Below are positions 5,701 to 32,989 of a stretch of 37,195 bases of DNA, piece after piece (position 1 is the stretch's first letter; each line of letters begins with the position of its first letter). The position numbers and the translations under genes were made by a program. Below the pieces are notes generated by a model. The model was not told the DNA's origin. It made no database searches and was given only the letters and a program-made list of their open reading frames with translations. The DNA is from a virus (taxonomy: Duplodnaviria; Caudoviricetes). The stretch lies in IMG/VR virus record IMGVR_UViG_3300032335_000219, positions 1 through 37,195 of that record; one strand, 5' to 3'.

Positions 5701-5702
5701 AC

Positions 5703-6961: not shown

Positions 6962-6963
6962 TT

Positions 6964-8159: not shown

Positions 8160-8171
8160 GGTAACCCCACC

Positions 8172-9833: not shown

Positions 9834-9848
9834 GAAAGGTAGTAACTA

Positions 9849-11770: not shown

Positions 11771-12144
11771 TGGCACACTTTGCTAAATTGGATGAGAACA
11801 ACATAGTCCTTGAAGTACATGTTGTAAATAATGATGCGCTTGACCCAAACAATGAAGAAGCAAGCGGTATTGCTTTTTTAACAGAGTGGTCAGGTGGTTA
11901 TTCAAACTGGAAACAAACTTCTTACAACGGAACTTTTCGTAAAAGATACGCTAATAAAGGAGATAAGTATAACCCAGATTTTGATGTATTTATTACACCA
12001 TCCCCTTTTCCATCTTGGAAATTAAATTACACAACCTTTGAGTGGGAAGCACCTATTGCCAAACCTCAAGCAATTAACGGTTATGCGTGGAGATGGTCTG
12101 AATATAATAAAGAGTGGGTTCAAGTAGCAATACCTACAGCGTAA
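11770..12144 (+). CDS. Hypothetical partner of the Gly-rich protein
   Basis: MAHFAKLDENNIV...WKQTSYN...RKRYA...FITPSPFPSW; TAATG coupling. Confidence 0.75.
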   Translation: MAHFAKLDENNIVLEVHVVNNDALDPNNEEASGIAFLTEWSGGYSNWKQTSYNGTFRKRYANKGDKYNPDFDVFITPSPFPSWKLNYTTFEWEAPIAKPQAINGYAWRWSEYNKEWVQVAIPTA

Positions 12145-12149
12145 TCTGT

Positions 12150-12177
12150 ATCCCTGAGCATGGATTAAAACTGCTCA
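12150..12177 (+). ncRNA. H-type pseudoknot motif, copy 1
   Basis: ATCC/GGAT stem, loop CTGAGCAT, TGAGCA pairs with TGCTCA 12172-77; covarying copy at 32449. Confidence 0.6.
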
Positions 12178-12208
12178 ACTTTTATGTCTTAATACCTAAG
12201 GAGATACA

Positions 12209-14239: not shown

Positions 14240-14252
14240 GGAGAACCATGTA

Positions 14253-14456
14253 ATGACACCTGAAAATTGGGCTGGACTAATCGTATCTGTAATAGCAATC
14301 GCAACTGCGTTTGCTGCCACCGTTAGATGGTTAGTCAAGCATTACTTGTATGAACTTAAGCCCAATTCAGGCACAAGTTTAAAAGATAATGTTAATCAAT
14401 TAAATGAAAAAGTTGAATTTTTAACAGAGTTAGTATTACAATCACTAAAAAAATGA
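14253..14456 (+). CDS. Single-TM coiled-coil membrane protein of the lysis cassette
   Basis: MTPENWAGLIVSVIAIATAFAATVRWLV...LKPNSGTSLKD; SD AAGGAG 14238-43; the track start at 14076 overlaps the previous gene. Confidence 0.75.
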   Translation: MTPENWAGLIVSVIAIATAFAATVRWLVKHYLYELKPNSGTSLKDNVNQLNEKVEFLTELVLQSLKK

Positions 14457-14551
14457 GTAATGATATTGATTGGGAATACCAAAACAAGTTAAGAGAACAG
14501 TGGTTAAAAGATAATCCAAATGCTGACTATCAAGGATGGATGTCAATATGA
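14453..14551 (+). CDS. 32-aa peptide (not in ORF track)
   Basis: MSNDIDWEYQNKLREQWLKDNPNADYQGWMSI; ATGA overlaps at both ends. Confidence 0.6.
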   Translation: MSNDIDWEYQNKLREQWLKDNPNADYQGWMSI

Positions 14552-15045
14552 GTCAAGTTGATGACTTCTTAGCAGTAGCACAAAAGGAAGTTGGCACAGT
14601 AGAAAAACCTGTAAATAAAACTAAGTATGGTGCATTTACTAAGCATGATGGTCAACCATGGTGTGGTTCATTTGTTATGTGGTGTGCTGCTCAAGTTAAA
14701 TTAAAACTACCTAACCTTGTCTTTACTCCAGCAGGTGTAGCAGGATTTCAGGGCATGGGTGCATGGAGCAACGCAGCCACGGCATCACCTAAGCCTGGCG
14801 ACATTGTGTTCTTTGACTTTGTTGAAGGTGGTAATCCAGTAGACCATGTAGGTATTGTGCTTAAAGATAACCTTGATGGAACTATTACTACCATTGAAGG
14901 CAATACGACACCCGAAAAAAAGAAGGGTTCTGAGCGTAATGGTGGTGAAGTAGCCATTAGGATTAGAGCGTACAAGAAAGACAACAAACGAAAACTTGCA
15001 GTGTTTGCTGCGGGTTTTGGTAAACCGAAATGGAGCAACAAATGA
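14548..15045 (+). CDS. CHAP-domain endolysin
   Basis: PWCGSFVMWC catalytic Cys, PGDIVFFD, HVGIV catalytic His, TIEGNT. Confidence 0.9.
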   Translation: MSQVDDFLAVAQKEVGTVEKPVNKTKYGAFTKHDGQPWCGSFVMWCAAQVKLKLPNLVFTPAGVAGFQGMGAWSNAATASPKPGDIVFFDFVEGGNPVDHVGIVLKDNLDGTITTIEGNTTPEKKKGSERNGGEVAIRIRAYKKDNKRKLAVFAAGFGKPKWSNK

Positions 15046-15254
15046 AAGACCTAATTGAAAAACTAAAGGACCCAAAGACTAAAGCAGCCTTTAAGTCCTA
15101 CCTTCGTGCAGTTCTTGCATCTGCTGTCACCATGGGCATTGCCCTTGCTGCTGATGTAGCACCACAATATGCAATTTTAATTGGTTCACTTGCCGCACCT
15201 GCCGCAAAGTGGGCAGACAAAACAGAAAAAGAATATGGACTAGGTTCCAAGTAA
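15042..15254 (+). CDS. Putative holin
   Basis: Two hydrophobic segments, charged C-terminus, coupled to the endolysin by ATGA. Confidence 0.65.
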   Translation: MKDLIEKLKDPKTKAAFKSYLRAVLASAVTMGIALAADVAPQYAILIGSLAAPAAKWADKTEKEYGLGSK

Positions 15255-15273
15255 CAAACAGTTTAAACAGATT

Positions 15274-15306
15274 AGCCCCCTCGCTTTTTTAGCGGGGGGC
15301 TTTTTT
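15274..15306 (+). terminator. Intrinsic terminator ending the late operon
   Basis: AGCCCCCTCGCT/AGCGGGGGGCT stem followed by a T6 run. Confidence 0.85.
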
Positions 15307-15699
15307 GCTTTCCCAATCTTTATTTTGTTGGGTCTTTAAGCGATGGCAGTTAGCACATAGTGTCTGGAGGTTATCTGGTTCATTATTTAAATGGTTGCCA
15401 TCTATGTGGTCAACATCTAATTGACTGCGGTGTTCTGCAACAAAGCCACACAATTCACAGTAATCTTTTTTATTTTTAAATTGACTAGAACGATACAAGT
15501 TATATTTATTTCTACAAGACCACCCATATTGTTTCTTCTTTAATCTTGCGGGTCCACATACTGCACAGATACCCCACCGTTTAACTGGATTCTTTAGGAG
15601 CAATCTATGTTGCTTAGGCTTATCCCCCTGTTGAATAGAATCCACCAGTTTTAAATATGGCAGGTGTTGCGGTCCATACTCTCTGCATAGAAACACCAC
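15289..15699 (-). CDS. HNH endonuclease (start uncertain)
   Basis: CELCG...LDVDHIDGNHLNNEPDNLQTLCANCH plus an upstream CAVC; the true start is probably downstream of 15699. Confidence 0.85.
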   Translation of the reverse strand: MVFLCREYGPQHLPYLKLVDSIQQGDKPKQHRLLLKNPVKRWGICAVCGPARLKKKQYGWSCRNKYNLYRSSQFKNKKDYCELCGFVAEHRSQLDVDHIDGNHLNNEPDNLQTLCANCHRLKTQQNKDWESKKAPR

Positions 15700-15787
15700 A
15701 ACATACTGGCAATCTTTCTTCGCCTATTTCAAAAAATAATTCTTGAGTAGAAGAACACACTACACATTTAAAATCATAAATCGGCAC
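15620..15787 (-). CDS. FmdB-family zinc-ribbon protein (not in ORF track)
   Basis: MPIYDFKCVVC...PVCCGVSMQRVW...IFKTGGFYSTGG, 55 aa, GTG start. Confidence 0.8.
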   Translation of the reverse strand: MPIYDFKCVVCSSTQELFFEIGEERLPVCCGVSMQRVWTATPAIFKTGGFYSTGG

Positions 15788-15923
15788 GGCTGTTAACCAA
15801 TCTTTTCAAGGTGTTTAAACGCCTTAGTCTGGCTTGCTGTTCCCGTACTACACCAAGTTTAAACGCAACTTTGTATAGTAGGAATTGCTCAATCGCAAAA
15901 ATCAGTATTAAAAGTATTTTCAT
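15774..15923 (-). CDS. 49-aa membrane-anchored basic peptide (not in ORF track)
   Basis: MKILLILIFAIEQFLLYKVAFKLGVVREQQARLRRLNTLKRLVNSRADL; bridges the two neighbouring genes. Confidence 0.5.
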   Translation of the reverse strand: MKILLILIFAIEQFLLYKVAFKLGVVREQQARLRRLNTLKRLVNSRADL

Positions 15924-18632: not shown

Positions 18633-18882
18633 GATACCTCAAGTCCTAGAACGGATGGAGGATGTCGCTAAAAAGATTTATGACCCTCAACAAATATGGT
18701 TGGAGTCAATGCAGTTTGCTGATTATGTAACTCAATTAGCAAAACATCTAAACGAGGACCATGGGCGTGAGTGTATTGATGAGATAGTTGAACAGTTAAT
18801 TAACATGTCTAACTCGTTTAAACAAATGGGAGAGAACGCACTACGGGTTCTTGATGAAGCAGAAGGAGAGCACAATGGCTAA
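18457..18882 (+). CDS. Hypothetical helical protein (start uncertain, possibly 18517)
   Basis: Fills the gap to the next gene; overlaps the tail of the previous ORF. Confidence 0.6.
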   Translation: MVGGHLFGKIKKLVGLKTSPMKNTKNTLELALSIQPHQLAQIVEKLDLPMEVKETLKSEIPQVLERMEDVAKKIYDPQQIWLESMQFADYVTQLAKHLNEDHGRECIDEIVEQLINMSNSFKQMGENALRVLDEAEGEHNG

Positions 18883-19606
18883 CAGTAATCAGGAAACATT
18901 ATCTCTTGGTTGGTGTGATAACGGTATGGTAGATGGCAAGTTTGCCGAAGGTATTATGTACACCACGGTGACTGCACCTACTCATAAGATGGCAATTAAC
19001 AATGCTATCCGTGTTCAAGGTAATCAAATTGGCAGACAACGCCAAGCGTTGCTCGACATGTGGTATGACAAAGTAAAGACAGACTGGTTGTTATGGGTTG
19101 ACTCTGACATTGTGCTTACTACTGAGGTGCTTGGCATGCTATGGAAGATAGCCGATAAGAACACCAAGCCAGTTGTATGTGGCACTTACTTTATTTCCAA
19201 GCAAATGGAATCTTCATTGATGCAACCTATGCCTGCTTTGTTTACCGAGATTAGTGAGTTTGAAATTAAATACTTACACCCACTACCTAAGGATGAAGTA
19301 GTAAAGGTTGACTGTGCTGGCTTAGGTCTTACCCTGATGCATCGCAATGTTGTTCCCAAGTTGCGTGCTATCTCACCTGATTACTCGGTCTTTGCCGAGA
19401 AGGAAGGGCTAGGAGATAAGTATATTGGTGAGGACATTGTGTTCTTCCGTAACTTAAAGAAGGCAGGCATTGATGTGTATGCACATACTGGTGCCGTTGT
19501 TAAACACATGAAGCGATTTGCTTATGATGAAAATTATTATGCGTTGTATTGGCAGGCTGCAGCAGCAGCAGAGAGGCAAACAAATGGCGAGCCAACAGCA
19601 AAGTAA
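18875..19606 (+). CDS. GT-A fold glycosyltransferase (GT2-like)
   Basis: WLLWVDSDI (DxD), GLGLTLMHR, GEDIVFF, VKHMK; SD AAGGAG before 18875. Confidence 0.8.
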   Translation: MANSNQETLSLGWCDNGMVDGKFAEGIMYTTVTAPTHKMAINNAIRVQGNQIGRQRQALLDMWYDKVKTDWLLWVDSDIVLTTEVLGMLWKIADKNTKPVVCGTYFISKQMESSLMQPMPALFTEISEFEIKYLHPLPKDEVVKVDCAGLGLTLMHRNVVPKLRAISPDYSVFAEKEGLGDKYIGEDIVFFRNLKKAGIDVYAHTGAVVKHMKRFAYDENYYALYWQAAAAAERQTNGEPTAK

Positions 19607-19949
19607 CAAGCGTAGAGGTGCATCGTTTGAGATAGACCTGGCTGATTGGTTTATGCAGCAGGGTTTAAACGCTCAACGCTTACCTCGTGCTGGTCGTAAT
19701 GACATCGGTGATGTATTTCTACCAGCAACCAATGACATCTATGTGATTGAAGCCAAGGCTCCACGCAGAGATGGCAAGGTAGACCTATCAGGTTGGTTGC
19801 GTGAAGCACACCTTGAAGCAGATAACTACCGTAAGTCTAAGAACATGAAGGTAACACCAACCCCATTGGTAATTATTAAGGCATCTAACAAAGGAATTGA
19901 GGATGCCTATGTTGTTCAAAGACTGGGTGATGTCCTTGCAAAACTCTAA
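19584..19949 (+). CDS. Holliday-junction resolvase-like PD-(D/E)xK nuclease
   Basis: NKRRGASFE...DIGDV...VIEAK. Confidence 0.75.
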   Translation: MASQQQSNKRRGASFEIDLADWFMQQGLNAQRLPRAGRNDIGDVFLPATNDIYVIEAKAPRRDGKVDLSGWLREAHLEADNYRKSKNMKVTPTPLVIIKASNKGIEDAYVVQRLGDVLAKL

Positions 19950-20307
19950 ACATGACATCGTTAAAGTTCTTGAACATTATGGATTTGAAATACCACATGG
20001 TAGGCGTGGGTGGTTCACACTGCGTTGCGCTTTCCATGGTGATAGAGTTAAGTCAGCCCGTTTAAACATAGACAACGGTGGGTTTCGTTGCTTTGGTTGT
20101 GAGATGGCTGGTGATGTTTATTCATTGATTATGAAACGAGAAGGAGTTGGGTTTAATGAGGCTAAGCAAATCGCAGAAAGAATTACTGGCGAGAGCAACG
20201 GAGAATTACGAAAGAAACCTAACGGAGATACTTCCGTATCTGACGAGCAGAGGTATCACAGAACAGACCGCTCGTATATTTCGCCTCGGCTTCGTAAGAG
20301 AGCCTGA
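19930..20307 (+). CDS. Primase zinc-binding (CHC2) subunit
   Basis: CAFHGD...SARLN...FRCFGC...GDVYSLIM. Confidence 0.85.
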   Translation: MSLQNSKHDIVKVLEHYGFEIPHGRRGWFTLRCAFHGDRVKSARLNIDNGGFRCFGCEMAGDVYSLIMKREGVGFNEAKQIAERITGESNGELRKKPNGDTSVSDEQRYHRTDRSYISPRLRKRA

Positions 20308-20773
20308 GATTGGACATGAACCTTACGCTGGTAAGTTAGCAATCCCATACCTAACACCAACAGGAGTCATTGATATAAGGTTCCGCAGTTTAAACGCTGA
20401 TACGGGTCCGAAATATATGAGCAGACCAGGGGCAACAACACACATCTTTAACATCAATGCATTGGGCGATGATACAGATGTCCTTGTTATATGTGAAGGT
20501 GAACTTGATACCGTTGTTGCTACACAAGCAGGCTTTAGTGCAGTTGGTTTGCCTGGGGCTAACAACTGGAAATCTTTTTATTCTCGTGTGCTTGCTGACT
20601 GGGCAAAGGTTATCTTGTTATGCGATGGTGACAATGCTGGTCGTGAAATGGCTAAGCATTTAAGTAGAGAACTAGACAATGTATTCCCTGTGTTTATGCC
20701 TGAGGGTCAGGATGTTAACGATGTCTACCTAATGGAAGGCGCAGATGGATTGCGTAAGAGGGCAGGCGTTTAA
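20156..20773 (+). CDS. Primase TOPRIM subunit
   Basis: YLTSRGI, AIPY, ICEGELD, DGDNAG, DVND; own SD AAGGAG 20141-46. Confidence 0.88.
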   Translation: MRLSKSQKELLARATENYERNLTEILPYLTSRGITEQTARIFRLGFVREPEIGHEPYAGKLAIPYLTPTGVIDIRFRSLNADTGPKYMSRPGATTHIFNINALGDDTDVLVICEGELDTVVATQAGFSAVGLPGANNWKSFYSRVLADWAKVILLCDGDNAGREMAKHLSRELDNVFPVFMPEGQDVNDVYLMEGADGLRKRAGV

Positions 20774-20775
20774 AC

Positions 20776-21165
20776 ATGATGGTAAAGAACTCGTCTTTTG
20801 ATTTAGACTTTGGATTTGGTCGCAAGGGCGAGCAATTAGTTGAGGCTTTACTAACAGAAGGTAAGACAGTTGAGGTCAAGCGTGACCGCAAATGGTGGAG
20901 CACGAACAACATTTATGTAGAGGTTGAGTGTTGGTTTAACAAGAGCAAATCATGGGAGCCATCGGGCTTGATGGTTACGACTGCGGAATACTGGGCATTT
21001 GTATTGGAGCGTGGTGTGATTATGGTACCCACTGACCATGTGCATCATGCAATTAAAGAGTTTGGCAGGGAAATAACCTGCGAGATACCACCTAACTGGA
21101 GCAAGGGTTATCTAATTACGGTAGAAGATTTAATGGCAGCAATGAGGATACTTAAAAATGGATAA
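20776..21165 (+). CDS. Putative PD-(D/E)xK-like nuclease
   Basis: FDLDFGFGRKGE...VEVKRD...NIYVE...PSGL...AEYW. Confidence 0.55.
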   Translation: MMVKNSSFDLDFGFGRKGEQLVEALLTEGKTVEVKRDRKWWSTNNIYVEVECWFNKSKSWEPSGLMVTTAEYWAFVLERGVIMVPTDHVHHAIKEFGREITCEIPPNWSKGYLITVEDLMAAMRILKNG

Positions 21166-21808
21166 CGATAAAGAATTATTATGGGAAACCGTATACAAAG
21201 TAGCACGCCTTAGTGCCACACGATGCGTGCGTATTCATCGCCACCTTGTAACGGCAGATGATGTGTTCCAACACCTAAGCCTTTGGGCAGTAGAACATTG
21301 GCACAAGATTGAGGAGTGGGAAAGTCAAGACTCATTGGTGTTTAAACTTAAGCGCACCTTTAACAATGAGTCGCAGAAGTTTGCCAGTAAAGAGCGTGCA
21401 TACAAGAGTAAATCTGTACCCTCTGATGCTTTCTATTACACACATGAGATACTTCAAGAGTTGCTTAAAGATGTATGGCACTATGAGCAGTGGGTACAGT
21501 CAGCAACACCTAGTGATGGTGAGTTCATTAGTAAATCAAGTAAGCCAAGTGAAGGCATGAACCGTGAGGCTATGTTGTCAGATGTTAGCGGCGCATTACA
21601 GCGTTTAAACGAACAAGACAAACTTCTCCTGCGGCGTAGGTTTGATGGCGGTGGCATGGACTTTGATGCACTCGCTATTGAATACTCGGTTAGTGATGAA
21701 GCCTTGCGTAAGCGTGTCAGTCGTGCACTTACCAAGTTGCAAGAAAGATTGGGTGGAGAACAACCTCAATGGAACAATCGTAGATATAGGAAACCTGATA
21801 ATGATTAG
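21158..21808 (+). CDS. Sigma-70/ECF-like factor with region-4 HTH
   Basis: DDVFQHL region-2-like segment; ALQRLNEQDKLLLRRRF...LAIEYSVSDEALRKRVSRALTKL. Confidence 0.75.
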   Translation: MDNDKELLWETVYKVARLSATRCVRIHRHLVTADDVFQHLSLWAVEHWHKIEEWESQDSLVFKLKRTFNNESQKFASKERAYKSKSVPSDAFYYTHEILQELLKDVWHYEQWVQSATPSDGEFISKSSKPSEGMNREAMLSDVSGALQRLNEQDKLLLRRRFDGGGMDFDALAIEYSVSDEALRKRVSRALTKLQERLGGEQPQWNNRRYRKPDND

Positions 21809-21962
21809 ACCCAAGTACCAACGCATGAAACCATGGAACTTAATAGGACTCCCGTTGTATTATATTGGTATCTGTTTAAACGATATTGGATACTACATCT
21901 ATGTAGCAGGTGATAAAATAATTTGGTATAAGCGCAAACAGATTGGATACACAAAGAAATGA
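21801..21962 (+). CDS. 53-aa hypothetical protein
   Basis: MIRPKYQRMKPWNLIGLPLYYIG...; overlaps the previous stop; ATGA to the next gene. Confidence 0.55.
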   Translation: MIRPKYQRMKPWNLIGLPLYYIGICLNDIGYYIYVAGDKIIWYKRKQIGYTKK

Positions 21963-22063
21963 GTGAGAATAAAATAGATGTTAAATGTTTTCATTGCTCT
22001 AAAGAATTTTATGTAGAGGAATCATCAGTAAGAACACCCTACTATTGCTGGAGTTGCAGATGA
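21959..22063 (+). CDS. 34-aa zinc-ribbon peptide (not in ORF track)
   Basis: MSENKIDVKCFHCSKEFYVEESSVRTPYYCWSCR; ATGA overlaps at both ends. Confidence 0.7.
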   Translation: MSENKIDVKCFHCSKEFYVEESSVRTPYYCWSCR

Positions 22064-22593
22064 TTATAGGTTTGAGTGGGTACGCACAGTCAGGTAAAGA
22101 TACAGTTGCTGAACTGTTGTGTTTAAATTATGGGTTCAAGCGTATATCTTTTGCATTACCTATGCGTGATGCGGTCTATACACTCAACCCAATAGTTGAA
22201 GGTGGCAATCGTGTTTCTGATTTAGTAGATGAGTATGGTTGGGATATAGCCAAGGCGGTTCCTGAGGTACGCAGATTACTTCAAGTGTTTGGTACTGAGG
22301 TAGGTCGCAATCTATTTGGTGAAACCTTTTGGATTGACCAAGCGTTTAAACGAGCAGAAGAATACCAACGAGTAGTGTTCTCCGATGTGCGCTTTCCTAA
22401 TGAAGCAAAGGCTATTCAACAAAGAAGCGGTGATGTGTGGCGTATCAATAGACACAATCACACTGCAGTTAATGGACATACATCAGAGCATGCAATGGAT
22501 AACTTTATGTTTAAACATGTTATCTATAATGATGGAACGCTTAATGATTTATCTGATGAAGTGTTTATGCTTGCTAAACAATTAAATTTGTAA
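22060..22593 (+). CDS. Deoxynucleoside monophosphate kinase
   Basis: IIGLSGYAQSGKDT, SFA, RRLLQVFGTE, DVRFPNE, HTSE. Confidence 0.9.
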   Translation: MIIGLSGYAQSGKDTVAELLCLNYGFKRISFALPMRDAVYTLNPIVEGGNRVSDLVDEYGWDIAKAVPEVRRLLQVFGTEVGRNLFGETFWIDQAFKRAEEYQRVVFSDVRFPNEAKAIQQRSGDVWRINRHNHTAVNGHTSEHAMDNFMFKHVIYNDGTLNDLSDEVFMLAKQLNL

Positions 22594-22594
22594 A

Positions 22595-22685
22595 ATACAG
22601 AAGCCCTCTCGCAAAGACTGGAATCCGCAAGAGGGCTTTTGTATGCTCACCTATCCTATACTTCCCCTTTATAGGGCAGGTGAGC
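22595..22685. ncRNA. Twin long hairpins at the convergence of the + and - operons (terminator and/or small RNA)
   Basis: 18-bp stem 22595-612/22627-644 with loop AAAGACTGGAATCC; 16-bp stem 22645-660/22670-685 with loop CTTCCCCTT. Confidence 0.6.
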
Positions 22686-22697
22686 GGTCTTACTGTA

Positions 22698-23042
22698 TCA
22701 CATTGCAATCCCTCGTGGGTCAGACACCTGTATGTTCAAGAGTCTGCGTGCTTGTGCCCTACGAAATGGCGTAGTGCCACCCCATATCCCACTCTTTTCA
22801 TGGACTAACCCCCACTCCAAACACATCTGCATAACTGGGCACTCCACACACATGCGAGCAAACAATCTTTCCTCCTCAGGTGTGAAGATGTCTTTGTCGG
22901 GGTAAAACAATTCAACATCTAACCCCTTACATGCAGCCTTCTCAGTTAGTTCGGGATTCCATCGCAGTTTAAACGCATCAAATCCCTTACCTCGGTAGCG
23001 AGCCTCTCTTGTTTCCATAATTCGGTGGTGTTTAATCTCCAT
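22698..23042 (-). CDS. whiB: WhiB-family Fe-S transcription factor
   Basis: AACKG...FYP...CVECPVMQMC...GIWGG; four Cys plus G(I/V)WGG; ATG 23042 overlaps the upstream stop. Confidence 0.93.
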   Translation of the reverse strand: MEIKHHRIMETREARYRGKGFDAFKLRWNPELTEKAACKGLDVELFYPDKDIFTPEEERLFARMCVECPVMQMCLEWGLVHEKSGIWGGTTPFRRAQARRLLNIQVSDPRGIAM

Positions 23043-23479
23043 TAGTACCAATTCTTGGCTAAGTGATGAGCGTAGGCTCTGCATATACCACGAGTCTTGC
23101 CATATTTTCTTTCGATATAAGCAAGCCCAGCATCTACTTGTCTAAACCCATTAAGTGTAGGTTTCATATCTATATTTACCCAAGTTTCAGGCATGAGTTG
23201 TGCTATACCTAACGCACCACTTGATTTGTTGCGTGCCTTTGGTCGCCAGTTGCTCTCCTCTGTCCATAATTCAAAGAGGCATGGGTACTGCTCAAGTTTA
23301 TCTTGCTTGATTAGTTCATTGATTGCGTACTGTTGATACACATTGTCATAGTATGCAACCACTTGTCCTTGTGGTTGGTGTCCGTTTATCTGCACCCTTG
23401 GATTAAATACTAGAAAGATTCCAAGAACAACAACCGTTGCTATCCATATTCGTGCATGCGGGTGTATCTGTTTAAACAT
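23042..23479 (-). CDS. Membrane-anchored lytic transglycosylase (SLT-like)
   Basis: N-terminal TM segment; EESNW...ARNKSSGALGIAQ...GLAYIERKYG...WY. Confidence 0.85.
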   Translation of the reverse strand: MFKQIHPHARIWIATVVVLGIFLVFNPRVQINGHQPQGQVVAYYDNVYQQYAINELIKQDKLEQYPCLFELWTEESNWRPKARNKSSGALGIAQLMPETWVNIDMKPTLNGFRQVDAGLAYIERKYGKTRGICRAYAHHLAKNWY

Positions 23480-23834
23480 ATTCTGCCTCCAGTTTCACAC
23501 GGTTTCCACACACTCGTTTAATAAATGCGAGTATGTCTTGAGGTATATCTGTGTCATTACCTTCGGCATCTGTCATGCCCACCACAATCATGTTGCCCAC
23601 AATCTTGGGTGCGTTGCCAAACATAAACGAGAGTGCGCTCGCTACTGAATTGAAAGAGAGTTGTTTAAGTAATCCCTCCTCATTTACATAGCCTTGGCAT
23701 ACACCATCACCAAAGAAATCGTACATACCAATGGGTTCAATCAACCCATCAACGGCAGTCTGCATGTCGGAGAGTTGTTTAAACTCCTTCTCCTCGTATG
23801 TCCCATCTGTGTATAGCACTGCACCTTTAGCCAT
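23472..23834 (-). CDS. DUF3846-like protein
   Basis: MQTAVDGLIE...YVNEEGLL...N..AS...IVGNMIVVG. Confidence 0.7.
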   Translation of the reverse strand: MAKGAVLYTDGTYEEKEFKQLSDMQTAVDGLIEPIGMYDFFGDGVCQGYVNEEGLLKQLSFNSVASALSFMFGNAPKIVGNMIVVGMTDAEGNDTDIPQDILAFIKRVCGNRVKLEAEYV

Positions 23835-24010
23835 TAGTTGTGCCAACCTTCCTTGAGTACACCGTTCTCGTACTCTCTGCCTACCTTATAGAGTTCACCG
23901 AGTTTATTTATTTCCTCGCTGATTTTATTAAGAAATGATTTGCGCTTATCACTGTCTAAGTGCGACACCATTTCCTCTGTGATTTCACAACGCCATATAG
24001 TCTGACTCAT
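23834..24010 (-). CDS. 58-aa hypothetical protein (not in ORF track)
   Basis: MSQTIWRCEITEEMVSHLDSDKRKSFLNKISEEINKLGELYKVGREYENGVLKEGWHN; TAATG coupling at both ends; SD AAGGGGAG. Confidence 0.75.
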   Translation of the reverse strand: MSQTIWRCEITEEMVSHLDSDKRKSFLNKISEEINKLGELYKVGREYENGVLKEGWHN

Positions 24011-24210
24011 TAGTTGCTCCCCTTTAGTTCAGCAAGTGTTTGTTCAAGCAGGGCTATGCGTTCAGCCCTGTTTAAACGAGGTGTGATTCCATACTTTAAC
24101 TTGGCTGCTTTTAATACCGCCTCGTATTCATCGGTGTGATTAGCAATAAGTAATTGAGTTGCCTCATACTTTGCCTTGGCGTACATGTTAGTTGAAGCAC
24201 TAGCAGCCAT
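24010..24210 (-). CDS. Hypothetical helical protein
   Basis: TAATG coupling; upstream AAAGGACTGG. Confidence 0.7.
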   Translation of the reverse strand: MAASASTNMYAKAKYEATQLLIANHTDEYEAVLKAAKLKYGITPRLNRAERIALLEQTLAELKGSN

Positions 24211-24464
24211 TAAAGCACCAGTCCTTTCATCATGTTGTTAAGGTCAGCCAGTGCAAGGTCGTCTGCGTTGTACTTGCAGCCGTCAATAGTTGCCTTGTTC
24301 TCTAGCCCTGCAACCTTAACCCAATCACGATAAGGCTTGACTCCTTTATAGTCCTTCATAAATAAGCAAGCGCTTAGGTATAGGGCATAGTCGTTGTTAA
24401 TCCACAACGCAATGTTCCAAGTGTTACGGTTTTTCCAACCGTTGTATGTGGTTTCTTTACTCAC
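24210..24464 (-). CDS. Conserved-type phage early protein (YNGWxNxxTW family)
   Basis: [21 protein letters not shown]; GTG start at 24464 or 24473. Confidence 0.75.
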
Positions 24465-24636
24465 GACCAACACCTTCTTTCATACATTTTGCACACACTT
24501 GGTATGCATCTATATCACCTTCGTTGCCATGATAATCAGGTCTAAGGTATTCGGTAGTTGCTTTCTTATTGCACCATGCACACAAGCCGATGCGTGTACC
24601 CCATACTGGGGTGGGTTTAGAAGTTGTTAAGGTCAT
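24457..24636 (-). CDS. 59-aa zinc-finger protein (not in ORF track)
   Basis: [25 protein letters not shown]...[15 protein letters not shown]. Confidence 0.65.
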
Positions 24637-24793
24637 GGGTTTCCACCTGCTTGTTTAGTTGGCGTACTCGTTGGCGTAGATAAGCGTTCTGTCCATTGAG
24701 TGTGATGTTTTGTTTGATTGCTAATCCCATTACGGTTAGCGCACCCAATAGGGCGATGATTGTGGCGATGATGTCGCCAGTTCCTAGATACAT
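24617..24793 (-). CDS. 58-aa TM plus coiled-coil peptide (not in ORF track)
   Basis: MYLGTGDIIATIIALLGALTVMGLAIKQN...LRQRVRQLNKQ; preceded by AAAGGACTGG and a promoter. Confidence 0.7.
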   Translation of the reverse strand: MYLGTGDIIATIIALLGALTVMGLAIKQNITLNGQNAYLRQRVRQLNKQVETHDLNNF

Positions 24794-24834
24794 ACCAGTC
24801 CTTTGTTTAGTGTAGCGGTGTTGCTACATGTCCG

Positions 24835-24863
24835 ATTATTCAGGAGGCACCAAGTAAAGTCAA
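24835..24863 (-). promoter_or_regulatory. Housekeeping-sigma-type early promoter
   Basis: TTGACT-N17-AATAAT with an AT-rich upstream tract. Confidence 0.65.
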
Positions 24864-25080
24864 GGATATTTGAAAAGATTTTTAAATTATTTATTTGTTT
24901 AAACAGTTTCACCACATGATGCGGTGAAACCTATTCTACCATGGCTGTCAAGTGTATGTTTAAACATGATGACATGCCAGACCCACCACCACCGCCTCCA
25001 CCACCACCAATGTTTAAACAAAGTTCTTGCATGGCACTGAAGATGGTTGTTTAAACGCTTGAAGATGCCAGACTGAGGGC

Positions 25081-25117
25081 AAATAAAAAACCCCCGCATT
25101 AGCGGGGGTTGTTTATT
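25081..25117 (-). terminator. Intrinsic terminator after the amidotransferase gene
   Basis: CCCCCGC/GCGGGGG stem; T6 run on the - strand, weaker T-run on +. Confidence 0.85.
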
Positions 25118-25124
25118 CTATTGT

Positions 25125-25928
25125 TTAGAATAGATGTGTGTCGTAATAACTAGATGTTTGTGAGTGCTCACTGTAATCATCGTAATACTTTGAGCGCCAG
25201 TTGTTTGTATACACCTGTTTAAATGGTGTGAAGTTCTGATGCTCCACAATTTTACCGTTCTTAATCTTGAAGTATTCACCCTCATCTGCATCGTGAACCC
25301 AGTCAAGAGTTGAGTCCAGCATAATCGCTGCGTTCTCAATGGTCTGCTTGGTTGAACCGTAAACCAGCGAACCTGATTTAGTTTGTGCAATCCATAGCGG
25401 TGATGAATTGATGCGTGCTAAGTGCAATGTGTTGCCCTTGCCTTGTTCAATCCAAGCCAGTGCTGCGGTGCCTTGTACACGAGAGAGTGCCTCGGCAATA
25501 GGCGCATTAGTAAATGCAATCAATGCAGCCACTGCCTCACTGTCAACCTGACCAATGCGAGGAACCTTTAACTGTTTAAACAACGCAACATCGTTGCTGA
25601 TGTGTCCGTTGTGAGTGAGTACGATTTTGCCACGAGGAATTGGGTGGTTGTTATCGTTTACTTTTGGGTCGCCTTGTGTAGCCCAGCGAGTGTGCAAGAT
25701 TGCAGTTGTAGCGCCAGCGCATGCACGCTTGCCCGCTTCGGTCTTAATGAACCGAGTCGCATCTACTGCAGCCTTGGTGATAACCCTCTTGCCTGTGCTT
25801 GGGTTAATCCATGCCACACCAGTGGCATCTTGACCACGATGTTCAATGTCCAGCAGCATCTGTGCTGCTAGGTCTGTTTGATTCTGATTGTGCTTAGGGT
25901 TTAAGCAGAAGCCAGCGATTCCACACAT
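25125..25928 (-). CDS. Class II (Ntn) glutamine amidotransferase
   Basis: MCGIAG, HRGQDATG, HTRWAT, NNHP, HNGHISN, VDSE, SPL. Confidence 0.92.
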   Translation of the reverse strand: MCGIAGFCLNPKHNQNQTDLAAQMLLDIEHRGQDATGVAWINPSTGKRVITKAAVDATRFIKTEAGKRACAGATTAILHTRWATQGDPKVNDNNHPIPRGKIVLTHNGHISNDVALFKQLKVPRIGQVDSEAVAALIAFTNAPIAEALSRVQGTAALAWIEQGKGNTLHLARINSSPLWIAQTKSGSLVYGSTKQTIENAAIMLDSTLDWVHDADEGEYFKIKNGKIVEHQNFTPFKQVYTNNWRSKYYDDYSEHSQTSSYYDTHLF

Positions 25929-25964
25929 AATTTATTTCTCCAGTCTGTAGTAGTTAATAAGTGA

Positions 25965-25973
25965 ATTGTACCA
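25965..25973 (-). promoter_or_regulatory. Extended -10 element
   Basis: TG-G-TACAAT about 37 nt upstream of the amidotransferase ATG. Confidence 0.5.
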
Positions 25974-25976
25974 CAC

Positions 25977-26063
25977 CTACTTGGTGAGGTAATACCATGC
26001 CCATGTTCCAGCAATAAGCATGACCAGCAATAAAGCCCGACCATCAAAGATTGACATGTCCAT
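25977..26063 (-). CDS. 28-aa membrane peptide (not in ORF track)
   Basis: MDMSIFDGRALLLVMLIAGTWAWYYLTK; starts 2 nt after the previous stop. Confidence 0.5.
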   Translation of the reverse strand: MDMSIFDGRALLLVMLIAGTWAWYYLTK

Positions 26064-26065
26064 GT

Positions 26066-26236
26066 TTAAACACCAACCCAGTTCTCATCTACGAATTGCA
26101 AACTATCGTTTGCTTCGTATCCTTCGCCAGCCTCTAATGAAGCCAGCCCTAATTGCAAGGCTTCGGCTTCGGTTGATGCCTCTACCTTTACCTCGTACCA
26201 AGTTGTCGCTTTACGCTGCACCCGATAAGTTTTCAT
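26066..26236 (-). CDS. 56-aa acidic hypothetical protein (not in ORF track)
   Basis: MKTYRVQRKATTWYEVKVEASTEAEALQLG...; preceded by GAAAGGACTGGAA. Confidence 0.75.
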   Translation of the reverse strand: MKTYRVQRKATTWYEVKVEASTEAEALQLGLASLEAGEGYEANDSLQFVDENWVGV

Positions 26237-26285
26237 TTCCAGTCCTTTCGTTTAAACGGTACCGAGGATTTCCCGATTCCGTTTG

Positions 26286-26331
26286 TGCCTGCCGAGGGGA
26301 TTGCACCCTCGCTTGCCCACTAGGGGCAGGC
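26286..26331 (-). ncRNA. tRNA-like structure lacking an anticodon arm
   Basis: 7-bp stem GCCTGCC/GGCAGGC plus A, 5-bp stem GAGGG/CCCTC with 7-nt loop TGCAATC, connector with TAGTGG. Confidence 0.55.
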
Positions 26332-26338
26332 TGCCTGC

Positions 26339-27088
26339 TTAGCCTTGGATTGAGGCTGCTCGGTCTTTGAGATATTGACCTGTCTTTGGGTCAAGATTAC
26401 CTGCAAGCATCAAGATGTTTAGCAGGGATTCGCACTTGTTTAAACGGTCATTGATTCCGAGTTCGTCAAGTGTGATTAGTTTGGTGGCTGAATAATCTTT
26501 GAAGGCATCAATAAACTTTGCCCATGCCACTGCTTTGGTGCCATTTAGGGTGCCTTGGTGCACTCTAATCTCAAGTGTGCCATGGCGCCCGAAAGATTGC
26601 AGATTGAAAGATTGGTAACGGTCACCGTTGATGTCGGAGATTTCACCGTTGCGGATTCTTTCAACATTGCGGTCTATATTTTGCAAAGTTGGAACCTTGC
26701 AGTATGAGTTGTTTAAACGGCTTGGGGCAACCAGTGCACCGATTGCCTCGTGCACAAGATTCCAGTTCAAATACCACTGGGCAACATGGTCAAGGCTTAG
26801 TGCTGCTGCACCGATGTGAACATGGAAGCCAGTGGTGCGGTCAACCTTGCCACCTGCTGAAAGAAGCAGACGGGCAACGGTTGATGCCTCGTTTAAACGC
26901 TCCTCGCCAAGGATTGGAGATACAACCTCGGCACCTCGGACTGAACCGTCATAAACGCTTGACCAAGATTCGTGGATTTGGTGTTGATTGCGTGGCTCGA
27001 TGCACTCGATGCCTCCACGATTTAGCGCTGCAGATGCAGCACTGGTTGAAATACCAGCGACCTCAAATTCCAGTCCGTAAGTAGTCAT
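26339..27088 (-). CDS. Putative amidoligase (COOH-NH2 ligase, glutamine-synthetase fold)
   Basis: YGLEFE, DGS, EVVSP, TGFHVH, R....YC, DRY..FN, GTLEIR, GTL. Confidence 0.88.
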   Translation of the reverse strand: MTTYGLEFEVAGISTSAASAALNRGGIECIEPRNQHQIHESWSSVYDGSVRGAEVVSPILGEERLNEASTVARLLLSAGGKVDRTTGFHVHIGAAALSLDHVAQWYLNWNLVHEAIGALVAPSRLNNSYCKVPTLQNIDRNVERIRNGEISDINGDRYQSFNLQSFGRHGTLEIRVHQGTLNGTKAVAWAKFIDAFKDYSATKLITLDELGINDRLNKCESLLNILMLAGNLDPKTGQYLKDRAASIQG

Positions 27089-27618
27089 TAGTTAGCCTCC
27101 ACAAGTGCGATATTGCAAACTGGGCAGATTGGAGCGCCAAGGTTTACAAGTGTGGAGCGAGAGATTCTTGCGATGTAGTTATCGTTTAAACATGCAACCT
27201 TGATTAGTCGGGTTGTCTGCTTAGGTGCTGCAGCGATTTCTAGTGCTGCATGAGGATATGAGCCAAGGCGCTCAAGGATTGGCAGTGCCCATGAAGGCAG
27301 GGTGTCCAGTGGCTTTGCAACGCTTGGTGCTGCATTTCTCCAGTTGCCACTTTGGGCAATTTGAAGCAGTGGGATTATTGCTGCAGCGACTTTTGATGCT
27401 GCATCAACGGTTGGTGAAATAAAGATTTCAGCAGTGAAATCTTGTGAAGCAGTTGGTGGCACTACTGCAGCCACTGCAGGCTTGCGACCTACTTTTGGAG
27501 GGAAGCCACAAGATAGGCGAATTGCTGCCTCCTCATCACCTCCGCCACTGATATTTCTAGCGATTGAAGGCTTTGCAGCAGATGCAAACGCTGCTAGCCA
27601 TTGCTCACGATTTCTCAT
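27088..27618 (-). CDS. SprT-like protein lacking HExxH
   Basis: REQWL, RLSCGFP, EIFISP, LGSYPH, KQTTRLIK, PICPVC; ATG 27618 with SD GGAG preferred over the track start. Confidence 0.65.
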   Translation of the reverse strand: MRNREQWLAAFASAAKPSIARNISGGGDEEAAIRLSCGFPPKVGRKPAVAAVVPPTASQDFTAEIFISPTVDAASKVAAAIIPLLQIAQSGNWRNAAPSVAKPLDTLPSWALPILERLGSYPHAALEIAAAPKQTTRLIKVACLNDNYIARISRSTLVNLGAPICPVCNIALVEAN

Positions 27619-27663
27619 GATGTTGCTCCGTTTCCAGTCGGTGTGGATTGTTCCACTGGGATA

Positions 27664-27692
27664 AAGGTAAACGAGTTTAAACAGAATTACAA
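27664..27692 (-). promoter_or_regulatory. Putative first early promoter with GTTTAAAC in its spacer
   Basis: TTGTAA-N17-TACCTT; spacer ttctGTTTAAACtcgtt. Confidence 0.55.
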
Positions 27693-27697
27693 GCACC

Positions 27698-27902
27698 CTC
27701 TAAAACCATTAATTTATACTGACTTTAGAGGGTTTAAACGATTGTTGGTTGGTTGGATTGCCTCCGATTATTGAAGCAGTGGCAAGTGGCAAATAAATAT
27801 ATTACTGGCGAGTAATGCTCTAAAGTCATTGATTTATACTGGTTTCAGCGATGTGCAATAGTGGCGATGCTCTAAAGTGATATTAAACAACTGACTTTGG
27901 CG
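27698..27902. repeat. Three imperfect 33-bp dyad repeats
   Basis: 27698-730, 27818-850, 27870-902; consensus CTCTAAAGTCA-N11-TGACTTTAGAG. Confidence 0.75.
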
Positions 27903-28196
27903 TATTACTGGTGAGTAGCATTTCGGGGCTATTCGTAGGGCTGCCACATTGTGAGATGTCCGTATCACATAGTGAGATGCCATTGCGATGCCTGCGGTTA
28001 GCAGTCGCTAGTGGTGAGTGCTAAGTCGGGGCGATGCCTTGCAGTTTAAACAAGGCTGCTGCGATTACTGGTCGGGGCGGATATGACACCGAGCAGCGAG
28101 TCAGCGCCAAGCCAGCGCATAGTCCTGCCAGCACCTAGCGCTGCCAGCCAGTGCAGCAAGTGCAAAGCAGTTTAAACGCCAGCAAAAAGCCTGCAA

Positions 28197-30421: not shown

Positions 30422-32236
30422 ATGGCACTTACCGTTGAAGAAATTAAGAACTATTATGACCGCTATCGCCGTATGTACGATGACCGTGACCAGCGCATGA
30501 ATCAAGTTCTCCAAGTTCGTCAAGGCAAGATGCGAGATGTTTACCCAGACCTTTTCCCCGATGGTCCTTTTGAGAATCCTATCGTGGCAAATATGGTAGA
30601 TATTGCTGCCCGTGATATTGCAGAAGTTATTGCACCTTTACCATCGTTTTCATGTACTTCAACATCTATGGTTTCAGAAACAGCCCGTAGAAAGGCTGAC
30701 AAGCGTGGAGAAATCGTTAACGGTATTGTTAACTTCTCTGACCTACAGACCCAGATGTTTAATGCTGCAGACCGTTATGTAACCTACGGTTTTGTACCAG
30801 CACAGGTTGAAATTGATATTGATGAGAGCATGCCTCGCATTAAATTCTTTGATTCATTAGGAAGTTACCCAGTTATTGACCGTTATGGTCGTGTAACTAT
30901 GTTCTTCCAACGCATGAATAAGCCAACAGAAGAACTAATGGCTAAGTATCCAGAACTAGCGCACTTAATTTACGATAAAAACAATACGACAACTGTGTCC
31001 GAGATTGTTCGTTTCCATGATAAAGACCAAGATGTCCTATTCATGCCACAGAAAAACAATCTTGTTCTTGAGCGTGCCAAGAATATGATGGGCGAGTGCA
31101 TGATTCGTGTTGTACAACGACCTTCATTAGATGACCAATCCCGTGGTCAGTTTGATGATGTACTGGCTATTCAAGTTGCTAAGGCACGCTATGCCTTACT
31201 TTCACTTGAAGCAGCAACCAAATCAGTACAGGCACCGATAGCGATGCCTTTAGATAGTCAGGAGTTAGCCCTTGGACCTGATGCAATTATGCGCTCCAGC
31301 AAGCCTAATGAGATTCGCAGAGTCCCACTTGAACTTCCTAGCAATGTGTTCGCACAGCAATCAGTTCTTGAGCAGGAACTCCGTTTAGGTAGTCGTTTCC
31401 CAGATGCCAGAACAGGTAATATGGATGCTTCCATTATTACTGGTCAAGGCGTTAAGGCTCTTATGGGTGGTTTTGATACACAAATCAAGACTGCACATGC
31501 AATGTTTGCTCGTGCTTTTACTGAATTGTTAGCACTTGCTCTTAAAGTTGATGAAAAAATCTTTGGTAATCAAGAAAAAGAACTTAAAGGTGTGTATAAC
31601 GGTACTCCTTACAACCTTAAGTACAAGCCAGAGCGTGATATTAGCGGTGATTACACCGTTGATGTGCAATATGGCTTAATGGCAGGACTTGACCCTAACC
31701 GTGCATTGGTCTTTGGACTACAAGCACGAGGTGATAAGTTAATTTCTCGTGATTTCCTACGCCGTCAAATGCCTTTCTCTTTCAATGCAACACAAGAAGA
31801 AGAAAAAGTTGAAACAGAAGAACTGCGTGATGCTATGAAACAAGCAATCGCTTCTTATGCACAAGCAATACCTGCCCTTGCAAGTCAAGGACAAGACCCA
31901 TCCGACATCCTACGCAAACTTTCGTATGTAATTAGTGCTCGCCAAAAAGGAACTGCTATTGAAATAGCAATCCAAGAGGCGTTCCAACCACAGAATCCCA
32001 CACCTGCTGCAGCCCCAGGCTCAGTAAGTCCCGAATCTATGGGCATGCCAAGTGAGAGCGCAGCAGGTGGAGGGCAACTTCCAATGGGCATGAGCGAAAC
32101 TGGTCGTATGCAAGGCGTTGCACCTGGACAAATTATGCCTGGTGGTCGCCCCGATGTTCAATCACTTCTCGCTGGTTTAAACAACCGTGGAGATGCAAAC
32201 TTACAAGCCACAGTCGCACGCAGAGTGCCGTTCTAA
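30422..32236 (+). CDS. Portal protein
   Basis: About 600 aa directly after terL, SD AGGAGGTG, low-complexity C-terminal tail. Confidence 0.85.
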   Translation: MALTVEEIKNYYDRYRRMYDDRDQRMNQVLQVRQGKMRDVYPDLFPDGPFENPIVANMVDIAARDIAEVIAPLPSFSCTSTSMVSETARRKADKRGEIVNGIVNFSDLQTQMFNAADRYVTYGFVPAQVEIDIDESMPRIKFFDSLGSYPVIDRYGRVTMFFQRMNKPTEELMAKYPELAHLIYDKNNTTTVSEIVRFHDKDQDVLFMPQKNNLVLERAKNMMGECMIRVVQRPSLDDQSRGQFDDVLAIQVAKARYALLSLEAATKSVQAPIAMPLDSQELALGPDAIMRSSKPNEIRRVPLELPSNVFAQQSVLEQELRLGSRFPDARTGNMDASIITGQGVKALMGGFDTQIKTAHAMFARAFTELLALALKVDEKIFGNQEKELKGVYNGTPYNLKYKPERDISGDYTVDVQYGLMAGLDPNRALVFGLQARGDKLISRDFLRRQMPFSFNATQEEEKVETEELRDAMKQAIASYAQAIPALASQGQDPSDILRKLSYVISARQKGTAIEIAIQEAFQPQNPTPAAAPGSVSPESMGMPSESAAGGGQLPMGMSETGRMQGVAPGQIMPGGRPDVQSLLAGLNNRGDANLQATVARRVPF

Positions 32237-32253
32237 AAGGGAGGAGGGTAACC

Positions 32254-32445
32254 ATGGCAAATACAAGTACAGCAAAGTATCCAAACAACCAACCTGGTAA
32301 GGCATCAAAGCCTGCTAATCAGGGTGGTTCAGCAAAGCCAAATGTACAACAGCCTACAAACTTCGGTATGCCAAAGGCTTCAAAGCCTGGCGCATCCGTA
32401 ACAATGTTCACAGCACAACCAAAGGGAACAAACGGCTCAAAGTAA
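32254..32445 (+). CDS. Small Lys/Pro/Gly-rich basic protein
   Basis: SD GGAGG; internal KASKP repeat; no acidic residues. Confidence 0.7.
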   Translation: MANTSTAKYPNNQPGKASKPANQGGSAKPNVQQPTNFGMPKASKPGASVTMFTAQPKGTNGSK

Positions 32446-32448
32446 GCC

Positions 32449-32478
32449 TTAAACCTGAGTAAGTTTAAAAACTGCTCA
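32449..32478 (+). ncRNA. H-type pseudoknot motif, copy 2
   Basis: TTAAAC/GTTTAA stem, loop CTGAGTAA, TGAGTA pairs with TGCTCA 32473-78. Confidence 0.6.
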
Positions 32479-32518
32479 CTAATTTTAAATACTGACCTTA
32501 AATGGAAAGGAGATGCAC

Positions 32519-32989
32519 ATGGCGGTAGAAAACCGTGGCGGTAATCGCCCAACTGCAGGACAAAATAACTATGCTGTTTCAGCAACAGGTGGTAGTGGAA
32601 ATGCAGGCACACAAGGCGCAAAGGCTATGACAGGTGGCGAATATGGCGAAAATCAAGCCATGATGGAAATGCAAACATCAGCACCTATGAACGCTTCTCC
32701 TACTTTCGCAGCAACTCCTTCTATGAGTCGCACACAGTCAGCCCCAACTGGACAACAAATTGTTCCGTTAGATGCACCAACACAACGCCCAGATGAACCA
32801 GTTACTACTGGTATTGATGTAGGCGAAGGTGCTGGTAGCGAAGTTATGTACGCAAAAGACCAAACTCTGGCAACAGAGGACCGTCAGCGCATGATTACTG
32901 CATTGCCAACGCTTTCAATTCTTGCAGAATCTCCTTCCGCTTCTAACGCCTTCCGCAATTATGTTCGTTATTTGCGGAGCGTTCTTTAA
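32519..32989 (+). CDS. Hypothetical virion-associated protein
   Basis: RGGNRP...YGE...PTQRPDEPVTTG..GEGAG; SD GAAAGGAG. Confidence 0.7.
   Translation: MAVENRGGNRPTAGQNNYAVSATGGSGNAGTQGAKAMTGGEYGENQAMMEMQTSAPMNASPTFAATPSMSRTQSAPTGQQIVPLDAPTQRPDEPVTTGIDVGEGAGSEVMYAKDQTLATEDRQRMITALPTLSILAESPSASNAFRNYVRYLRSVL

Follow-up and report, generated by a model that had tools for sequence, protein, structure and literature searches.

A palindromic octamer tiled across the early arm of a freshwater phage and the SprT-like zinc-ribbon protein proposed as its reader

The locus and its iterated word

The stretch of DNA analyzed here, which we call the window, comprises positions 1 to 37,195 of the IMG/VR record IMGVR_UViG_3300032335_000219 and represents a 37-kb fragment of a roughly 40-kb phage. 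It encodes terminase, portal, capsid, tail and lysis functions; a replication block reads rightward (exonuclease, DnaB-like helicase, primase, a sigma-like helix-turn-helix (HTH) protein and a deoxynucleoside monophosphate (dNMP) kinase), and an arm whose first gene encodes a SprT-like protein reads leftward (WhiB, transglycosylase, GATase and amidoligase). The subjects of this study are the palindromic octamer GTTTAAAC, which occurs in 43 exact copies in the window, and the SprT-like protein, P0001, which we propose as its reader. The features on which the argument depends are the following.

18816..28177, no strand assigned: dense GTTTAAAC array whose 29 copies span the replication genes and the leftward early arm at a mean gap of 334 bp
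1168..15864, no strand assigned: nine sparser copies (1168, 6028, 7160, 7291, 13870, 14055, 15261, 15813, 15857) among structural, lysis and small leftward genes
32175..37158, no strand assigned: five sparse copies (32175, 35054, 35207, 36224, 37151) in the portal and the large virion-type gene, with the lowest conservation in relatives
28170..28177, no strand assigned: last GTTTAAAC of the array, 375 bp upstream of the terminase gene
27088..27618, minus strand: reader candidate P0001, a SprT-like protein of 176 aa and first gene of the early arm, with an N-terminal zincin-like fold and IIPLL in place of HExxH
27091..27264, minus strand: C-terminal zinc ribbon of P0001 (residues 119-176), in which Q134, T136, R137, K140 and R151 are conserved in word-bearing carriers

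A first-pass annotation of the window, which was made from the letters alone, had listed 43 copies against about one expected, and every listed position proved to be exact; the order-2 Markov expectation is 1.26 at the window GC content of 43.4%. The concentration of 29 copies in 9.4 kb and the absence of the word from 7.3-13.8 kb and 28.2-32.1 kb of the window were borne out by our count, and such clustering was reached in only 1 of 20,000 random placements. The reported rarity of near copies also holds, with the 24 one-mismatch words summing to 25 copies in the window, and 43 of the 73 TTTAAA hexamers have the G...C flanks.

Within genes, 32 copies were observed compared with 3.7 +/- 1.6 after synonymous codon permutation within genes (maximum 9 in 1000), and the enrichment therefore survives a codon-preserving null. 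The encoded proteins permit the word at 39 places and 32 of these are used, at similar rates inside the dense core (19/23) and outside it (13/16). The core is dense because it holds far more permissive peptides (22 vs. 4.0 expected from shuffled proteins) and more non-coding sites, with 11 of its 29 copies touching non-coding DNA compared with 14.5% of positions (P = 0.0017). Therefore, GTTTAAAC is under selection at silent sites throughout the genome and, in the core, on amino acids as well. The copies of the core are also more evenly spaced than random (coefficient of variation (CV) 0.62 vs. 0.95, P = 0.005), and even spacing was found in 10 of 12 tested relatives; helical phasing of the sites was not significant (P about 0.07 at 10.5 bp).

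Conservation and replacement of the word in relatives

Among the 80 loci retrieved with the window helicase, two groups of relatives stand out. In the first, GTTTAAAC is the top word; in the second, TGTCTTAA-type words prevail, which are summarized by TGWCTTAAK, and GTTTAAAC is rare or absent. The complete genomes G009, G013 and G014 contain 42, 1 and 0 copies of GTTTAAAC, respectively. The window sites are kept in place among relatives of the first group, being whole in 867 of 1053 alignments (82%) compared with 25% of neighbouring in-frame 8-mers, and they are whole in 36 of 470 alignments to the other-word relatives, where the value for neighbouring 8-mers is 13%; these alignment counts are not independent because the loci compared are relatives of one another, in some cases on the same contig. 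At position 20060, 32 of 44 alignments to the second group show that group's own word in the same codons.

These results bear on the possibility that the array is a mutational or compositional by-product, for example of codon bias or methylation-driven repair. The word is AT-rich and suits common peptides such as RLN and FK. However, it exceeds the codon null, it is conserved far beyond its neighbours, its sites are lost where the accompanying gene is swapped, and it is present in carriers of 63-71% GC; we consider a by-product hardly credible.

The exchange of words is accompanied by an exchange of genes. Among 40 loci spanning WhiB to terminase, 21 combine the window-type SprT-like gene with GTTTAAAC, whereas 18 have a paralog in the same place together with TGWCTTAAK, and the ribbon of the paralog reads KGRNTN in place of KQTTR. 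The one remaining locus (L137, from genome G014) combines the window-type gene with a third word, GTCTAAAC. The sister system (L125:8679-9320, minus strand, with equivalents in 18 relatives) consists of a SprT-like paralog with an intact HExxH and the polar word TGWCTTAAK, which is often fused to the ribosome site as TTAAGACAGGAG. This asymmetric word occurs 161 times in sense and 4 times in antisense orientation in the replication genes, and in the early arm 485 copies run with transcription and 149 run opposite to it.

The other-word relatives share the tail (up to 100%), holin (99%) and endolysin (97%) with the first group, as well as the absence of AGCT and GATC, which argues against a host cause. 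The first-pass annotation had offered a host protein or a HIP1-like host signature as one explanation, and an iterated palindromic octamer does resemble HIP1; the word might also be a decoy for a host defence protein. Neither version is supported by phages that agree in tail, lysis genes and site avoidance and have another word. Moreover, Planktophila phage E7 contains one copy (a comparison that depends on the presumed identity of the host), four EB phages on Microbacterium foliorum contain none, and among both actinobacterial and proteobacterial hosts the word goes where the gene goes. A host origin is thus very improbable in our estimation.

The gene that accompanies the word

The comparison within the family weighs less for P0001 than it might, because GATase and amidoligase split with the word in the same manner (21/21 vs. 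0/18). The whole early arm has been swapped, and in-family comparison alone therefore cannot single out the reader gene. A second source of evidence is a word-only sampling of IMG/VR, in which two copies 25-55 bp apart were required and 130 stretches were obtained from 5 of the 64 collection parts; 79 of the sampled loci had flanks, three duplicates were dropped, and the ribbon profile had been made beforehand. The ribbon domain was present in 24 of 34 loci that were further enriched for the word and in 0 of 42 that were not (Fisher 3.5e-12), including 16 of the 25 enriched loci without a nucleotide match to the window. Three more enriched loci have the ribbon elsewhere in the record (3 of 5 searched), which raises the count to 27/34, and the remaining seven are contigs of at most 13.5 kb; the ribbon was found in 0 of 3 long non-enriched records. 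When the 38 window proteins were compared with 32 distant loci, the SprT-like protein had 21 matches, and GATase and amidoligase had none.

Named genomes agree with the sampled ones. All 11 named carriers of a QxTR ribbon contain the word above expectation, with 4 to 40 copies compared with 0.04-2.1 expected: MaGuCo 15, Maureen 17, Emotion 17, Zeta1847 22, Venkman 34, ep3 4, Persinger 4, Bas97 6, Microdon 40 (50 kb read), R26L 11 (40 kb read) and plasmid pUT1 5 (0.04 expected). An array was found in none of the six altered-ribbon genomes (Dismas, FlameThrower, BubbaBear, Armstrong, CN1 and phiAsp2), nor in FlowerPower and E7, which are both without the domain; the four EB-type genomes from phages on M. 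foliorum, that of BubbaBear included, have an altered ribbon and no word. Records with a homolog number at least 164 for phages and 74 for plasmids, and the word accompanies the gene in elements of actinobacterial and proteobacterial hosts alike. Judging from these sequence comparisons, we consider it very probable that the reader of the word is the phage's own SprT-like zinc-ribbon protein.

Other candidates were rejected. The sigma-like HTH gene (21158-21808) and WhiB both occur with both word types, and GATase and amidoligase are absent from distant carriers. Two altered ribbons deserve mention in their own right. In Actinoplanes phage phiAsp2 (L169), the gene at 25056-25811 encodes a third ribbon type, and the genome has 14 copies of a TGAAGTGTCA-containing repeat, one of them just upstream of this gene; the repeat might serve as a promoter element or form a further reader-word pair. 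The EB phages also have a 52-aa ribbon-only form of the altered type (BubbaBear, L309, 33106-33264), and no iterated word was found with it.

The predicted structure of P0001 has a mean predicted local distance difference test (pLDDT) score of 83.8. The best matches of its zincin-like domain are zincins at Z 4.5-5.4, which is in the middling range, and they include 6mdx (Z 4.6, root-mean-square deviation 4.4, 89 aligned) and Wss1 (5xbn, Z 4.5). Pfam yielded no match for P0001 at E <= 1, and the sister-type paralogs match PF10263 at E 1e-5. Foldseek returned no match at E <= 0.001 for the whole model or the ribbon, the sequence search of solved structures gave nothing credible, and matches in the Atlas stayed under 0.8, which speaks against no known fold. 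Over its full length, P0001 is homologous to the SprT-like proteins of the AZ and EH/Zeta1847 phages (31-38% identity), which have the same QxTR ribbon. The HExxH motif has become IIPLL in P0001 and its lineage and is intact in most distant carriers, and in three relatives the gene has been reduced to a 55-aa ribbon-only form accompanied by arrays of 15-40 copies. Therefore, it is the ribbon, rather than proteolysis, that goes with the word.

A one-letter change that removes TTAA

The changed word of L137 led to the prediction that its genome avoids TTAA, and G014 contains 0 TTAA in 41.6 kb, where about 68 are expected, while keeping 29 copies of GTCTAAAC/GTTTAGAC in 21.9 kb around the arm. 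Among carriers with at most one TTAA, 6 of 6 use GT[CG]TAAAC, whereas 7 of 7 TTAA-tolerant carriers use the palindrome; in Zeta1847 and Microdon, few TTAA are expected in any case. Doubly changed palindromes are absent from G014. The array is thus required, and a word altered at one letter is likely still accepted by the reader.

Placement of the copies relative to promoters

The first-pass annotation had described a copy in a promoter spacer (27675) and copies at stop/start junctions, and both kinds are as described. Two features are of interest here.

27664..27692, minus strand: predicted promoter of the reader gene (TTGTAA, a 17-bp spacer holding copy 27675, TACCTT), recognized by eye and below the scan threshold
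24835..25110, minus strand: intergenic block that combines two promoter-like sites and a terminator with four copies (24897, 24958, 25012, 25049)

A sigma-70 scan of the window found 18 promoter-like sites compared with 27 in shuffles, and the promoter calls therefore depend on how relatives compare. In 25 of 28 family members, the 100 nt upstream of the reader gene contain a copy, where about 24% is expected from array density. The register varies: the copy may occupy the spacer, cover the -10, lie just downstream or fall between the ribosome site and the start codon. Of the 11 named carriers, 9 have a copy directly upstream of the gene. Zeta1847 has nine repeats of TTGC..-word-TATGAT-type promoters in the same register as the reader promoter of the window, and in AZ phages the word directly follows a -10-like hexamer. 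Furthermore, ep3, Persinger and Bas97, which have only 4-6 copies, place one of them about 20 nt before the reader gene.

Within the intergenic block, the promoter-like sites are at 24863-24835 and 24962-24933, the latter overlapped by copy 24958, and the terminator is at 25089-25110. An inverted repeat, GTTTCACC...GGTGAAAC (approximately 24906-24932), CCA repeats and an AT-rich stretch lie among the four copies, and the interval 24880-25090 could hold a small RNA or an origin. Another inverted repeat, CCCTCTAAA...TTTAGAGGG, occupies 27697-27730 between copies 27675 and 27732 and is conserved upstream of the reader promoter in many relatives.

Cultured carriers and plaque type

For cluster AZ phages, the consulted part of the preprint treats the immunity repressor as not known and names the SprT-like gene as one of four candidates; it reports clear plaques for Liebe, turbid plaques for Maureen and an insertion of one base within the SprT-like gene of Liebe (bioRxiv 10.1101/2025.05.26.655371). 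We found that this insertion halts the frame after 22 codons, so that Liebe would be close to a null, as in a classic clear-plaque repressor mutant. The phages Zeta1847, Floof and Percival form turbid plaques with no repressor identified in the sections consulted, and most other Microbacterium phages are described there as forming clear plaques (PMC7302621). In several cultured soil phages, a protein of the P0001 kind may be the immunity repressor that is missing from their descriptions. For these AZ/EH phages with turbid plaques or lysogens, the gene, the site and a clear-plaque mutant (Liebe) are now predicted.

Arthrobacter phage Emotion (L307) contains seven exact copies of GTTTCACGTGAAAC, which we take to be the actinobacterial parS consensus, at 4451-44988. 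Because Emotion is without an integrase and yet is reported as turbid (bioRxiv 10.1101/2025.05.26.655371), it may persist as a plasmid using host ParB.

Proposed mechanism

In our judgment, the best reading, and a moderately probable one, is that the copies are operators and intragenic roadblocks for a phage-encoded repressor, P0001, of an undescribed kind; repression as the main job of the reader seems fairly probable. The zinc ribbon of P0001 would bind the 43 copies, probably as a dimer, because the preferred word is palindromic and no variants beyond those of a single letter occur. Where copies lie in or beside predicted promoters, initiation would be blocked, also at the P0001 gene itself, while read-through of early and replication genes would be damped by the copies spread evenly within genes. 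Since this phage is integrase-free, the likely task is to shut down the early arm once the DNA has entered, or to maintain a non-integrated carrier state; in the cultured temperate AZ/EH phages, the same protein would act as the immunity repressor. A selected DNA site for a phage protein, in the form of an operator or roadblock array, was among the suggestions of the first-pass annotation, and it is supported here: the word exceeds the codon null, is conserved in place and tracks one phage gene.

A number of observations weigh against repression. In the window, the word is absent from the helicase/exonuclease operon (16256-18306) and from its promoter region. Among 16 distant IMG/VR carriers, a copy at most 110 nt upstream of the gene was seen in only 3, and pUT1 has none upstream. 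The 40 copies of Microdon are evenly tiled (CV 0.54), structural genes included, which exceeds the need of promoter control. The polarity of the sister word flips in the last two rightward genes (sigma-like and dNMP kinase; 115 antisense, 19 sense), approximately 1.2 kb before the convergent junction. Against solved structures, the ribbon had no DNA-binding match (best Z 3.1). With regard to lysogeny, no tyrosine integrase or serine recombinase was found in five complete relatives, Bas97 encodes its own CI-like repressor, and Liebe and Maureen differ by three more bases, with plaque types given second-hand in the part of the source consulted (bioRxiv 10.1101/2025.05.26.655371).

The same reader could instead have another job, and we regard this as a serious rival, although a distinctly less probable one. 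In this alternative, the word is a protective mark that tiles incoming or replicating DNA every few hundred bases, where the bound reader blocks host DNA-tracking defence enzymes or, where HExxH is intact, brings a protease to stuck host proteins; the promoter copies would merely tune the reader's own level. The even spacing in the window, in the relatives, in Microdon and in R26L speaks for such tiling, as do the 32 of 43 copies that lie inside genes, bought even by amino-acid changes, the 74 plasmid records with a homolog (among which pUT1 is enriched and has no copy upstream of the gene) and the resemblance of the zincin fold to DNA-protein-crosslink proteases (6mdx and Wss1), at middling scores. 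However, HExxH was lost in the window lineage and ribbon-only forms coexist with full arrays, which indicates that proteolysis is dispensable, and the promoter copies of Zeta1847 and the AZ phages, the polar sister word and the Liebe frameshift point to transcription. A broader version, which we put forward only tentatively, is a widespread self-marking of phages and plasmids in which the ribbon reads a tiled word and either silences the DNA or docks a protease that strips host proteins, while the reader-word pair is swapped as a unit and the word is bent by one letter to dodge restriction. If true, the reader would be a sequence-specific DNA-binding protein of a new class, and mobile DNA would have a new way of tagging itself, beyond a repressor.

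Comparison with known systems

The consulted part of the literature on Cluster A mycobacteriophages describes operator/stoperator arrays of more than 20 sites across the genome for repressors of the L5 gp71 type (PMC9283540). The present system resembles them in that one phage protein is tied to many genome-wide sites (here 43), in that some sites overlap promoters, which are predicted here (copy 27675, 25/28 relatives and the repeats of Zeta1847), and in that the sister word is asymmetric and mostly follows transcription. It differs in several respects. In L5, the sites are asymmetric 13-mers that occupy promoters and short intergenic spaces, whereas the word is an 8-bp palindrome that is mostly intragenic; the L5 reader is a monomer with an HTH and a Stoperator domain (PMC9283540, as far as consulted), whereas the model of P0001 combines a zincin-like domain and a zinc ribbon with no HTH; and the window phage is without an integrase. 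We believe that the word system most likely works like an operator/stoperator system without being a member of that family, given its palindromic 8-mer and the lack of an HTH.

SPRTN and Wss1 are DNA-protein-crosslink proteases, and P0001 appears to resemble them in its predicted zincin-like N-terminal fold, for which the structural matches are weak, and in its C-terminal zinc-binding part. In P0001, however, the catalytic motif is lost, and we know of no sequence-specific site arrays in the biology of SPRTN/Wss1. The AZ and EH/Zeta1847 phages have a full-length homolog and 15-22 copies of GTGTAAAC/GTTTACAC; the AZ preprint predicts a SPRTN-like protease and, in the portion consulted, names no site (bioRxiv 10.1101/2025.05.26.655371), whereas the window protein is without HExxH.

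HIP1 (GCGATCGC) of cyanobacteria is likewise a selected, iterated palindromic octamer in coding sequence, but, according to the sections consulted, it is chromosomal and holds methyltransferase targets (PMC6604393), whereas the word studied here is tied to a gene of mobile elements and is replaced when that gene is swapped. In the establishment regulons of the pLS20 family, genes expressed fast and briefly after entry share repeated regulatory sequences, which is the logic of our proposal for the early arm; those sequences, as described in the part consulted, sit upstream of operons (PMC8708921), and the likeness is one of logic only.

In our literature search, we found no paper that pairs this word with this protein. 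The match in PMC5587285 is a chance one in a promoter table, and GTGTAAAC/GTTTACAC appeared in none of the searched hits. The analysis proposes a binding word for a family annotated as 'SprT-like protease' or 'transcription elongation protein' and a candidate repressor of a non-HTH kind. In an abundant family of lake phages, reader and word have been swapped together, and the array survives restriction pressure by a one-letter change; the swap and the TTAA escape represent a natural experiment in protein-DNA co-evolution.

Genome ends, host and other observations

The position of the array relative to the genome ends is relevant to one further explanation. In the first-pass annotation, the edge of the array at 28.2 kb was suggested to mark the genome end that enters first. 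In FlowerPower, a terminal repeat of 253 bp lies about 0.7 kb upstream of the start of the homologous terminase, and by analogy the following feature is proposed for the window.

27846..28100, no strand assigned: putative genome ends (terminal repeat), placed by analogy with FlowerPower

By this analogy, it is plausible that the genome ends near 27.85-28.1 kb and that the leftward arm is the early end; no ends were visible in the contigs, which were the only material searched. A copy lies 350-400 bp upstream of the phage's own terminase in 8 of 12 relatives. The word could accordingly be a mark for DNA entry, replication origin or packaging near the genome end, read by P0001 or by another phage protein, and the array does stop beside the putative end, with four copies beside the AT-rich stretch and inverted repeat at 24.9-25.1 kb. 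However, the same word is found in carriers as different as cos-type phages, terminal-repeat phages and plasmids, whose replication and packaging genes are unrelated, and carriers with no more than 4-6 copies place one before the reader gene. Such a role in DNA handling appears improbable.

The window terminase is approximately 50% identical to those of the Streptomyces Beephvirinae (e.g., FlowerPower) and 47% identical to that of Planktophila phage E7. Because E7 has the same gene layout as the window and the same absence of AGCT, GATC, GGCC and CCGG, the host is likely an acI-type freshwater actinobacterium, to judge from sequence and from the consulted parts of two reports (PMC10202952, PMC6802176). 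The window itself is without AGCT, GATC, GGCC, CGCG and CCGG, and ACGT and TCGA are nearly absent, which is in part common to most relatives; the locus L066 avoids none of AGCT, GATC, GGCC and CCGG and has no array in 11 kb. A scan of a genome collection with the terminase, aimed at host chromosomes, gave three contigs in proteobacterial bins, which were probably misbinned and were not used.

The sequencing runs that contain the window stretch are mostly lake or freshwater metagenomes. The contigs of one run span 13629-26767 and 26820-31934 and differ from the window by 18 and 14 letters, respectively, and this run may represent the sample from which the window came. The RNA contigs of relatives extend over early genes as well as structural ones and gave no ranking among them. 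At 32989-37194, the window encodes a large protein of virion type, residues 844-975 of which form an ADP-ribosyltransferase domain (Pfam ADPrib_exo_Tox), and domains of this type are reported in freshwater phages in the part of the source consulted (PMC6802176).

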